Assembly: GCF_046105845.1 (NCBI RefSeq)
Contig: NZ_CP151004.1
Direction: 5' to 3' (one strand)
Source: Escherichia coli
Lineage (GTDB): Bacteria; Pseudomonadota; Gammaproteobacteria; Enterobacterales; Enterobacteriaceae
DNA length: 64,000 bases
Shown here in pieces: positions 61,179 to 61,890 of the stretch. Within the stretch, counting starts at the first letter, position 1; each line of letters opens with the position of its first letter. The translations under genes were made by a program, and so were the position numbers. The notes below the pieces were generated by a model that saw only the letters and a list, made by a program, of their open reading frames with translations, had not been told where the DNA came from and searched no databases.

Positions 61179-61241
61179 TGGGCGGTATTCTGAAACGGCG
61201 ATTGTCGTGAGAACAGAATGGTTGCACCAGAATACAGATAT

Positions 61242-61271
61242 AAAAAAACCGACATGACAGTCGGTTTTTTT
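61242..61271. terminator. Bidirectional rho-independent terminator, for selU (plus) and for the candidate antisense sRNA (minus)
   Basis: aaaaaaaccgacatgacagtcggttttttt: perfect 6-bp stem with an A-tract on one side and a T-tract on the other. Confidence 0.75.
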
Positions 61272-61330
61272 ATTTTTTCCGCCCAAAACTTGGTGGTTCC
61301 GGGCAGAAATGAAACAGTCCTCATCTAGCA
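61242..61330 (-). ncRNA. Candidate antisense antitoxin sRNA (~89 nt) paired with the downstream small toxin ORF
   Basis: Minus-strand promoter TTTGAA(61365-61360)-N18-TATAAT(61341-61336); predicted 5' end at about 61330, the edge of a 16-nt repeat also found in the toxin leader; ends at the bidirectional terminator. Confidence 0.4.
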
Positions 61331-61589
61331 AGTGAATTATAAGTCAGGATGCCTACATATTCAAACAGCTATGTTGGCGATACAATCCCGACGCTAGTAG
61401 TGATACTGCCTCAAGGGATTACCGCAGTGCGGAAAAGTACTTTTAAGTCCTGGTCAGGATACAGGTGGTGCTGATTCTGGTGCTCTAATTTGGAGAGAGG
61501 CAGTCCTCATCTAGCACATGAAGAAAATCATAGTTACAGGCAACGTAAGGGTAAGCTGTGATTGTCTTTCTCCCTTAAGGGAGCAACGG

Positions 61590-61673
61590 ATGAAAACTTT
61601 TCTCGATAAAGTTCTCATCATTCTTAAGGCGCTAATCGCGCTGCTGGAACTGATCCGTCAGTTTATTGAATAA
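61590..61673 (+). CDS. Small hydrophobic peptide (27 aa), candidate type I toxin of the DinQ/ShoB class
   Basis: MKTFLDKVLIILKALIALLELIRQFIE; SD aagggag 6 nt upstream of the ATG, sequestered in the palindrome ctcccttaagggag; in-frame stop 39 nt upstream; the motif ALIALLELIR matches what I recall of E. coli DinQ. Confidence 0.55.
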   Translation: MKTFLDKVLIILKALIALLELIRQFIE

Positions 61674-61689
61674 CTGAGGAAACGTAGCT

Positions 61690-61720
61690 AAGGCCGAAGG
61701 TTTACCACCTTCGGCCTTTA
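61690..61720 (+). terminator. Stem-loop downstream of the small toxin ORF
   Basis: aaggccgaagg-tttacca-ccttcggcctt, an 11-bp stem; weak T-tract, followed by a second imperfect hairpin at 61722-61745. Confidence 0.5.
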
Positions 61721-61776
61721 AAAAAACCGACATGACAGTTGGTTTCATATTTATTGCCAAAATGCACACTGTTCAT

Positions 61777-61874
61777 GCCAGATGCGGCGTAAACGCCTTA
61801 TCCGGCCTACACAATCTTGCAAAATCAATATATTGCACGATCCTCGTAGGCCTGATAAGCGTAGCGCATCAGGC
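61777..61874. repeat. BIME: pair of inverted REP elements
   Basis: gccagatgcggcgtaaacgccttatccggcctac ... gtaggcctgataagcgtagcgcatcaggc; near-identical architecture to the BIME at 3655-3752. Confidence 0.8.
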
Positions 61875-61890
61875 AATCTAACGCCTGTCA

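Follow-up and report, generated by a model that had tools for sequence, protein, structure and literature searches.

In E. coli K-12 the RhsD element lies between ybbP and selU, and the locus studied here, in a 64-kb window (the whole stretch of 64,000 nucleotides that was analysed), raises the question of what occupies this gap in a genome without RhsD and how it came to be there. The K-12 gene order in NC_000913 is ybbP (b0496) - rhsD - ybbC - ylbH - ybbD - ylbI - ylbG - selU (b0503), with 7.3 kb from stop codon to stop codon. The original prediction had placed rhsD of MG1655 between ybbP and ybbB/selU, which this order bears out, and had put the two genes about 710 bp apart in the present genome, where the distance is exactly 712 bp. 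In AST215, a genome of 99.9% identity, RefSeq gives the order mnmH - dinQ - ybbP. The parts of the locus are as follows.

60084..61178, plus strand: selU/mnmH, tRNA 2-selenouridine synthase, left flank; 364-aa ORF, named mnmH in AST215, 96.4% identity to K-12 selU; its stop codon ends at 61178.
61179..61890, 712 bp: selU-ybbP spacer, the "dql + BIME" allele, between the stop codons of the convergent genes.
61196..61765, 570 bp, 43% G+C: block of the dinQ-like toxin/antisense-RNA module, absent from REP-only and 58-bp alleles.
61766..61890: BIME, two inverted REP units and a spacer, with partial Rfam hits to naRNA4 (61771-61807) and ES036 (61811-61853).
61891..63984, minus strand: ybbP, ABC transporter permease, right flank; listed ORF, named ybbP in AST215, 97.5% identity to K-12 ybbP; its stop codon begins at 61891, and the gene extends past the start of the listed ORF at 63984.

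BLAST comparison of the window with the K-12 stretch revealed that only selU and ybbP match. Homology stops at 61173 on the selU side and at 61885-61888 on the ybbP side, no more than about 10 nt from either stop codon, and the last sense codon of selU is CAG in this genome versus CGG in K-12. BLAST found no sequence shared by the 712-bp spacer and the 7.3 kb of K-12. The RhsD element of K-12 gave zero blastn hits in the whole 64-kb window, and the best tblastn match of the RhsD protein there had an E value of 0.34. No Rhs core was found within the window; a large rhs core ORF of the RhsD type (about 1400 aa, with YD repeats) is absent from the 712-bp spacer, and the largest ORF in the window, of 1047 aa, is CusA. 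The alignment to MG1655 thus shows that the RhsD element of K-12 is replaced here by an unrelated 712-bp spacer, and the observation on the RhsD site is confirmed with exact coordinates. This absence is a normal strain difference and not an assembly problem.

The spacer had also been described as holding a small toxin module and a BIME, and Rfam, NCBIfam and repeat analysis showed that both are real. The Rfam families hit in the BIME are REP-derived, and the spacer as a query gave 165,420 matches across E. coli genomes, with a median of 30 in each, a pattern typical for REP sequence. A module-free allele of 240 bp carries the same BIME as this genome. The ends of the 570-bp block were defined by the short alleles, in which ATTCTG is joined directly to TGCAC(G/A)CTGTTCATGCC, that is, the sequence of the window minus 61196-61765. 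The G+C fraction of the block is 0.432 versus 0.514 for the window. No target duplication or terminal inverted repeats were found at its ends.

We surveyed the alleles at selU-ybbP in 5426 complete E. coli genomes. The RhsD type was found in 2907 genomes and the dinQ-like module in 1331 (24.5%), where it is always chromosomal and single-copy; ST540, O145 RM8843 and AST215 are among the carriers. An Hcp-Tle1 effector with two to four DUF2931 genes occupies the gap in 574 genomes, ST131 among them, and short spacers of 58-240 bp, with REP only or nothing, were found in about 590. These four states are mutually exclusive, and their counts sum to about 5400 of the 5426. At least 80% of the 712-bp spacer is covered in 1314 genomes of the survey, and selU, module and ybbP are contiguous in 1314-1317 of the 1331 carriers, indicating that the dinQ-like module and the large inserts do not co-occur. 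Since occupancy of the gap is a structural comparison, chance is not the relevant test. These four occupants support the earlier suggestion that the gap is a variable hot spot with a different small accessory element in this genome. The alleles differ over the whole spacer, with breakpoints at the stop codons; they do not have a spacer in common into which a single element was inserted. Polymorphism of the RhsD site was listed before (Jackson 2009, PMC2935791, Table 3, locus 3, ybbA..ybbB), and strain Crooks has been reported without rhs at b0496-b0503 (Archer 2011, PMC3032704, Table 6). A literature search for dinQ together with ybbP found nothing relevant. Because variable RhsD occupancy (Jackson 2009) and dinQ-like "dql" genes (Kristiansen 2016) are already published and the module is annotated in public genomes, the finding is correct but ordinary, and its novelty is low.

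What, then, is the module? Our reading, which we hold with good confidence, is that the gap keeps alternative spacers and that the one present here consists of the BIME and a 570-bp paralog, of the "dql" kind, of the DinQ/AgrB type I system, spread recently by homologous recombination. The antisense half of the module is made up of the following features.

61336..61364, minus strand: sigma-70 promoter of the AgrB-like sRNA; TTGAAT, 17-nt spacer, TATAAT; 10 of 12 consensus matches.
61240..61328, minus strand: AgrB-like antisense sRNA, antitoxin candidate; Rfam RF02891 (AgrB), 51.4 bits versus a gathering score of 40.
61240..61273, both strands: bidirectional intrinsic terminator serving selU (plus) and the AgrB-like sRNA (minus); 14-bp stem with flanking A-run and T-run, called on both strands.
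61474..61515, plus strand: predicted target of the sRNA in the toxin 5' UTR, where the sRNA would pair through its 5'-most 33 nt.
61719..61758: degenerate repeat of the sRNA terminator, making up direct repeat D1 together with 61241-61280; 83% identity over 40 nt, 478 bp apart.

The RF02891 match covers the full-length model (61328..61240, minus strand), and the sRNA is predicted to fold into three hairpins with -38 kcal/mol. Its gene lies upstream of, and divergent from, the dinQ-like toxin gene. The sRNA promoter was the only promoter-like site found by a consensus scan of 61100-61950, and it would place the start of transcription at about 61328, the beginning of the Rfam match. The core of the target is a 22-nt direct repeat, D2 (61315-61336 and 61501-61522). 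The predicted duplex of sRNA and UTR has an energy of -42.6 kcal/mol versus -23.3 +/- 3.0 for shuffled sRNA. It is weaker and shorter than that of AgrB with dinQ in K-12 (-62.7) and also weaker than that of AgrA with dinQ (-47.2), a pair that does not repress in vivo (Kristiansen 2016). These energies were calculated for the 5' part of the sRNA and the UTR only; RNAduplex gave -71 kcal/mol for the full-length sRNA and mRNA, a value rejected as an artefact because the second terminator copy was included. For AgrA of K-12 with the dql mRNA a duplex of -41.4 kcal/mol is predicted, close to the -42.6 of the module's own pair.

The toxin half of the module was read as follows.

61381..61386, plus strand: candidate -10 (TACAAT) of the toxin mRNA, read by eye; transcription would start near 61393.
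61393..61722, plus strand: predicted dinQ-like (dql) toxin mRNA, about 330 nt.
61590..61673, plus strand: 27-aa DinQ-family peptide MKTFLDKVLIILKALIALLELIRQFIE and stop codon; NCBIfam NF041472 (toxin_DinQ), 37.2 bits versus a cut-off of 30.
61690..61718, plus strand: terminator hairpin of the toxin mRNA; 12-bp perfect inverted repeat AAGGCCGAAGGT/ACCTTCGGCCTT.

The -35 of the toxin promoter is poor, and the consensus scan of 61100-61950 did not call this promoter. The predicted mRNA is 69% identical to the K-12 dinQ transcript over 218 nt, starting from AAGTCCTGG at 61445, the equivalent of the position at which the active, processed +44 form of K-12 dinQ begins. From promoter to terminator in the K-12 sequence, the +1 transcript of dinQ is of similar length, and its terminator has the same position and type. 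The peptide gene has a Shine-Dalgarno sequence, AGGGAG, at 61577-61583, and PGAP annotates either the 27-aa form or a 51-aa form with its start at 61518. The peptide is identical to K-12 DinQ at 14 of 19 residues and has a hydrophobic core, VLIILKALIALLEL, with a mean Kyte-Doolittle value of 2.6; against the NCBIfam DqlB model it scores 23 bits, under the cut-off of 35. A 41-aa ORF at 61349-61474 overlaps the promoter region, has no family match and was set aside as a chance ORF.

We propose that the module works as K-12 dinQ/agrB does. The near-consensus promoter would drive an sRNA of about 89 nt from the minus strand and the weaker divergent promoter the toxin mRNA of about 330 nt from the plus strand. 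The 5' end of the full-length mRNA may pair with the sRNA-target region and so keep the mRNA inert, and 5' trimming would make it translatable into the 27-aa membrane peptide. In the predicted fold of the full-length mRNA, 61393-61412 pairs with 61497-61515, resembling the 1:2 lock of dinQ. The Shine-Dalgarno sequence is mostly paired in the folds of both the full-length and the 5'-trimmed mRNA, so that the activation switch was not reproduced in silico. Pairing of the sRNA at 61474-61515 would lead to cleavage and block translation, by analogy with K-12 dinQ/agrB, for which cleavage upon sRNA pairing was shown experimentally.

Of the 5426 complete E. coli genomes, 5422 carry the canonical dinQ-agrAB locus, and therefore the selU-ybbP module is an extra paralog; Escherichia sp. 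E1V33 likewise has both loci. Relatives of the module were found on 1661 plasmids with only 60-80% identity and on Serratia chromosomes with 75-76% identity. The 20-mer GCGCTGCTGGAACTGATCCG, common to dinQ and the paralog, gave 70 hits in 100,044 species genomes. Most of these are chance matches in G+C-rich genomes, and eight are relevant (Escherichia, Serratia, Pantoea).

How did the module come to be in so many backgrounds? Strains that are 2-5% apart in selU and ybbP show 0.7-1.1% divergence in the module, and identity of the module stays at 99% or more where the flanking genes of the backgrounds are 4-5% apart. A nearly identical module on divergent flanks is consistent with a recent horizontal exchange of the entire spacer. 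Since selU and ybbP are convergent, an exchange of the gap's content can leave promoters and coding sequences untouched, and the alleles would replace each other through homologous recombination in the conserved ends of the two genes. The dql spacer may have spread recently between lineages by such replacement. In the pair of ST540 and K-12 the exchanged tract reaches into ybbP, as homologous recombination predicts. Co-transfer of long flanks was rejected because the flank haplotypes do not cluster by allele but track the strain background. In E2348/69 the haplotype switches from B2 to dql at 61170-61183 on the left and 61843-61894 on the right. Plain homologous recombination would not be expected to place its crossovers directly at the stop codons.

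The same near-identity might come from an old balanced polymorphism, in which E. coli inherited the dql spacer from its ancestor, Rhs and Hcp islands displaced it afterwards and purifying selection on RNA structure keeps the module uniform. Most of the 570 bp is predicted functional RNA (sRNA, structured 5' UTR, ORF and terminators), carriers of the allele belong to several phylogroups and include Escherichia sp. E1V33, and the module lies within a spacer whose BIME also occurs in module-free alleles, all of which would suit this explanation. The scan with the 20-mer missed E. albertii, E. fergusonii and the E. coli type strain, and the outgroups thus give no ancestral state. However, the identity of dinQ-agrAB, which has the same architecture, falls as low as 91.6% within E. 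coli and is 93.7% in E1V33, indicating that the DinQ/AgrB family is not intrinsically ultra-conserved. The dql module of E1V33 is 99.1% identical, versus about 94.7% for allS and selU, and promoter-spacer positions, expected to be neutral, are conserved as well, with 0-1 change in 61289-61488. We therefore regard an old polymorphism as unlikely.

Inactivated forms of the module also occur. A 108-bp deletion removes the ribosome-binding site and start codon in about 15% of carriers (roughly 180-200 genomes), and in E2348/69 an IS481-family insertion lies inside the promoter region of the module. A few strains lost the module between the D1 repeats; one of them, GF131, is an exact D1 x D1 recombinant with a 234-bp spacer from which the sRNA body and the toxin are gone. 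The second terminator copy is thus a substrate for deletion, and these events together indicate that loss of the toxin is tolerated. Three independent types of inactivating event and a weak toxin promoter could mean that the module is a decaying relic, a silent toxin-antitoxin remnant with no present function. This is decidedly improbable, as about 85% of carriers keep the ORF, ribosome-binding site, sRNA, sRNA promoter and both terminators intact at 99% identity or more, and changes in the peptide are conservative, such as I11/V11.

RefSeq names the gene "damage-inducible type I toxin DinQ", which would make it a true, SOS-induced orthologue of dinQ; the peptide does pass the NCBIfam DinQ equivalog cut-off, and PGAP calls the gene dinQ in more than 1000 genomes. 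No LexA operator of the form CTG-N10-CAG was found in 61179-61890, and the region of the K-12 dinQ LexA box does not align with the window. In the best LexA-like 20-mer of the spacer, five of the six core bases fit and the overall score is 11 of 20, versus 15 of 20 for the K-12 box. Next to the hok/sok copies of the window the same scan found two sites scoring 15/20, which act as a positive control because hokE is a LexA-regulated gene. Having no LexA box, the dinQ-like copy does not support the name "damage-inducible" and, unlike K-12 dinQ, is probably not SOS-induced. With the real dinQ residing elsewhere in almost every genome and DNA identity to it of only 69%, orthology is very unlikely, and the RefSeq label is probably a misnomer for a paralog. 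A MITE-like or integrase-dependent cassette, site-specific for this spacer, could account for the single site of the 570-bp block, its sharp ends, its internal flanking direct repeats of 40 nt and breakpoints near gene ends in different backgrounds, but it is equally hard to credit, as we found no target-site duplication, terminal inverted repeats, multiple copies or recombinase gene, every carrier has one copy, no plasmid matches at 85% identity or more, and the tract exchanged between ST540 and K-12 is not confined to the spacer.

Recent allelic replacement of whole spacers therefore remains our preferred reading of the locus. More tentatively, selU-ybbP might be a cassette-exchange slot for competing conflict modules (Rhs, Hcp-Tle1 and type I TA), in which a 570-bp module free of mobility genes recently swept E. 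coli phylogroups and a separate Escherichia species by whole-spacer swaps at the stop codons and shed the SOS control that its parent family has; we consider this broader picture possible but doubtful. The locus is a compact case of unrelated toxin systems alternating at one spacer between convergent genes and would exemplify how an RNA/peptide module reaching from promoter to terminator spreads from lineage to lineage through allelic replacement. It would suit asking what selects chromosomal type I toxin-antitoxin pairs, although it opens no new question.

Among known systems, the RhsD element (locus 3 of Jackson 2009) shares with the module exactly the same ybbP-selU gap, and it is likewise accessory, toxin-encoding and variably present among strains. 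The two have no common sequence, and 7.3 kb with a 1426-aa YD-repeat protein stand against a 570-bp RNA/peptide module. RhsD is a contact-dependent interbacterial toxin, whereas the dinQ-like module is predicted to encode a self-directed membrane peptide. Orphan Hcp-effector islands of the Hcp-ET type are another alternative occupant of the gap and also combine a toxin with immunity-like cognate genes, but they encode a 667-aa Hcp-Tle1-like phospholipase fusion and DUF2931 proteins, unrelated to the module in sequence and mode of action.

The closest described system is dinQ-agrA-agrB of K-12, located at gor-arsR (Weel-Sneve 2013, Kristiansen 2016). Both encode a 27-aa hydrophobic peptide with the common motif ALIALLELIR and have a divergent Agr sRNA that is complementary, at its 5' end, to the 5' UTR of the toxin. 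Both have an mRNA of similar length with a similar terminator, and homology starts at the +44 processing region. The module differs in having one agr gene instead of two, a terminator remnant downstream, no LexA box, another chromosomal site and a presence in only a quarter of genomes; its antisense match is also shorter, with 16 nt exact within the 22-nt repeat versus about 31-34 nt in K-12. Kristiansen 2016 describes a set of 14 dql sequences on chromosomes and plasmids of Enterobacteriaceae, including plasmid DqlB. By the similar 5' UTR and signature residues with which that study defines the dql family, the module fits within it, and, as described there for dql genes, it comes with a promoter, a Shine-Dalgarno sequence and a terminator of its own and can coexist with dinQ.

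The genes allA (-), allS (+), selU/mnmH (+) and ybbP (-) follow one another in the window, and the spacer between selU and ybbP contains, as the original prediction had it, a small toxin module and a BIME. The features of this region are as follows.

Features of the selU-ybbP region (window positions)
60084-61178, + strand: selU/mnmH
61179-61890: selU-ybbP spacer, 712 bp
61240-61273, both strands: terminator hairpin, 14-bp stem with an A-run before and a T-run after it, scoring as a terminator on each strand
61328..61240, - strand: AgrB-like sRNA, full-length match to Rfam AgrB (51.4 bits; gathering score 40)
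61364..61336, - strand: sRNA promoter TTGAAT-17 nt-TATAAT, preceding the AgrB match
from 61445, + strand: dinQ-transcript-like stretch, from AAGTCCTGG through the ribosome-binding site and ORF, 69% identity to K-12
61590-61673, + strand: 27-codon ORF encoding MKTFLDKVLIILKALIALLELIRQFIE, NCBIfam DinQ model (37 bits; cut-off 30)
61690-61718: perfect 12-bp hairpin
61719-61758: degenerate second copy of the sRNA terminator, 83% identity to 61241-61280
61766-61890: BIME
from 61891, - strand: ybbP

A promoter scan revealed that TTGAAT-17-TATAAT is the sole promoter-like site in the region. The similarity to the dinQ transcript starts where the processed, active +44 form of dinQ has its 5' end. The peptide of the 27-codon ORF matches K-12 DinQ at 14 of 19 residues, and it falls below the cut-off of the NCBIfam DqlB model (23 bits against 35). 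RefSeq names the toxin ORF of matching genomes dinQ, as a 27-aa or a 51-aa form. PGAP is inconsistent here, as one gene (window 61518-61673; loci L002 and L082-L086) is either 51 aa (WP_001308457.1) or 27 aa (WP_349808740.1).

The original prediction placed the RhsD element of K-12 between ybbP and selU, and MG1655 indeed has rhsD, ybbC, ylbH, ybbD, ylbI and ylbG there, 7.3 kb in all. When the window was aligned to this stretch, the match was confined to selU and ybbP. The absence of RhsD from the gap and the distance of about 710 bp between the two genes are confirmed. On the selU side, K-12 homology stops at 61173, 5 bases ahead of the selU stop (the final sense codon is CAG in the window and CGG in K-12), and on the ybbP side it stops 3-6 bases past the ybbP stop. 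The aligned 712-bp spacer has no similarity to any part of the K-12 RhsD element; in the whole 64-kb window, blastn gave no match to RhsD and the best tblastn hit had an E of 0.34. The largest ORF of the window encodes CusA (1047 aa). A second published rhs position, locus 4 of Jackson 2009 (nfrB-cusS), is also within the window, and no rhs element is found at this site, which runs from the end of cusS (19549) to the start of nfrB (19699).

A census of the gap in 5426 complete E. coli genomes revealed four alternative occupants, supporting the proposal that the locus is a variable hot spot holding a different small accessory element in this genome. The RhsD type, marked by the 430-bp ybbP-rhsD spacer of K-12, was found in 2907 genomes, the dinQ-like module in 1331, an Hcp-Tle1-like phospholipase fusion (667 aa) with 2-4 DUF2931 genes in 574, ST131 among them, and short spacers in ~590; these classes total ~5400 genomes. 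Short spacers come in three lengths: 58 bp, among others in the type strain ATCC 11775, 140 bp, among others in Nissle 1917, and 240 bp. The query for them returned 784 genomes, and the truly short class was put at ~590 because the 784 include ~200 with the 604-bp allele that results from the 108-bp deletion in the module (see below). The module is chromosomal in every carrier, at a median of one and a maximum of two places per genome, and 1241 of its copies match that of the window at 99% identity or more. Since selU, the module and ybbP are contiguous in 1314-1317 of the 1331 carriers, the gap states are mutually exclusive. Relative to the short alleles, the module forms a clean insert of 570 bp (61196-61765) between ATTCTG and TGCAC, and neither a target duplication nor terminal inverted repeats were found at its ends. 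In the Hcp-Tle1 allele of THO-003 (locus L009, 10674-16002), the junction lies inside selU and the last codons are replaced; selU is 1107 nt there and 1095 nt in the window. The ybbP-proximal 33 nt, half a terminator hairpin, are common to the 58-bp allele and the THO-003 allele.

Three derived forms of the module allele were observed. A 108-bp deletion across the imperfect 10-nt repeat AGT(C/T)CTCATC is present in ~180-200 complete genomes, for example GN02270 (locus L004, 1900-2503; window equivalent 61505-61612); the toxin gene thereby loses its ribosome-binding site and first 7-8 codons along with part of the sRNA target, and the intact sRNA gene remains as an orphan antitoxin. In E2348/69 (locus L082, 3592-4685), an IS481-family element of 1094 bp, flanked by a 7-bp target duplication (window equivalent 61364-61370), has inserted between the sRNA promoter and the candidate toxin -10, which displaces the -35 region and splits the putative toxin promoter. 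GF131 (locus L081, 2484-2717) has a 234-bp solo allele, an exact recombinant of the terminator copies 61241-61280 and 61719-61758 without sRNA body or toxin; at most ~17 genomes have such partial forms.

Between carriers, selU diverges by 4-5% and ybbP by 2-5%, the module by only 0.7-1.1%, and 61289-61488 has 0-1 changes. Constraint alone seems an unlikely cause of this identity, since the canonical dinQ locus diverges down to 91.6% identity within E. coli. An ancient balanced polymorphism could also explain it if constraint is very strong. The best reading is that the whole spacer recently spread horizontally, with homologous recombination acting in the conserved ends of the two genes. Flank haplotypes track strain background, not allele: the selU and ybbP ends of E2348/69, a module carrier, are 0-3 bases from B2 strains with Hcp, 140-bp or 58-bp alleles and 16-26 bases from other carriers, and the breakpoints of its haplotype fall within 61170-61183 (left) and 61843-61894 (right). 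ST540, which has the module, and K-12, which has Rhs, show 3 differences over the last 480 nt of selU, and their exchanged tract reaches into ybbP. The module of Escherichia sp. E1V33 matches the window at 99.1% identity, against ~94.7% for its allS and selU, and its canonical dinQ locus matches K-12 at 93.7%. The 3' part of selU (60889-61088) is unusually divergent among E. coli carriers (10-18 differences per 200 bp, compared with 1-7 in allS), a pattern that recombination importing foreign alleles beside a variable site would give.

The 5'-terminal 33 nt of the sRNA are predicted to form a duplex with the toxin 5' UTR (61474-61515) of -42.6 kcal/mol, compared with -23.3 +/- 3.0 for shuffled sRNA, and a 22-nt repeat is the core of this match. 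K-12 AgrA (L003) is predicted to pair with the 5' UTR of the module (61393-61680) at -41.4 kcal/mol, close to the -42.6 of the cognate sRNA. K-12-type AgrA is not known to have a target in K-12; this near-equal predicted pairing suggests that cross-talk with the toxin mRNA might be possible in strains carrying both loci. We infer by homology the start site and processing step of the toxin mRNA, its toxicity and its repression by the sRNA. The mRNA may start ~7 bases past TACAAT (61381-61386), and its first 20 nt would then pair with the sRNA-target region in the predicted fold. A similar structure in dinQ, the element 1:2 helix, holds the full-length transcript inert and out of reach of AgrB (Kristiansen 2016, PMC5066626).

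It is already published that rhs locus 3 (ybbA..ybbB) is present or absent by strain (Jackson et al. 2009, PMC2935791) and that strain Crooks lacks rhs at b0496-b0503 (Archer et al. 2011, PMC3032704). Both the variable occupancy of the rhs locus and the dinQ-like family are in the literature, a dinQ-like gene at selU-ybbP is annotated in more than 1000 RefSeq genomes, and differences of this kind between strains are already known. The literature search returned no text that locates a dql gene in the selU-ybbP gap or describes the four-state alternation, and these two points are incremental additions.

K-12 dinQ has a LexA box (15/20 in our scoring), whereas no LexA operator was found in the scanned spacer, where the best 20-mer has 5/6 core bases and 11/20 overall. 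Two 15/20 sites were found in the window beside tandem hok/sok copies, and they were taken as a positive control of the scan because hokE is LexA-regulated. Since the module copy lacks an operator, its RefSeq/PGAP label 'damage-inducible' is unsupported. The hok/sok type I toxin-antitoxin locus is itself tandemly duplicated (4431-5438; period 504 bp, 98% identity), with two HokE-like 50-aa ORFs, Rfam sok matches at 4676-4832 and 5180-5336, and a strong LexA-box-like 20-mer, AGCTGTTTATTTATACAGTG, in each copy (4862 and 5366).

Nearly all of the complete genomes (5422 of 5426) have the canonical dinQ-agrAB locus, and E1V33, which is its own Escherichia species in GTDB, has both the module at selU-ybbP and the canonical dinQ locus next to gor; therefore the module is an additional paralog of dinQ. 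Its relatives are found on 1661 plasmids, mostly conjugative, at only 60-80% identity, and on Serratia chromosomes at 75-76%. The module fits the 'dql' (dinQ-like) class of Kristiansen et al., which was defined in enterobacterial chromosomes and plasmids (Kristiansen 2016, PMC5066626).
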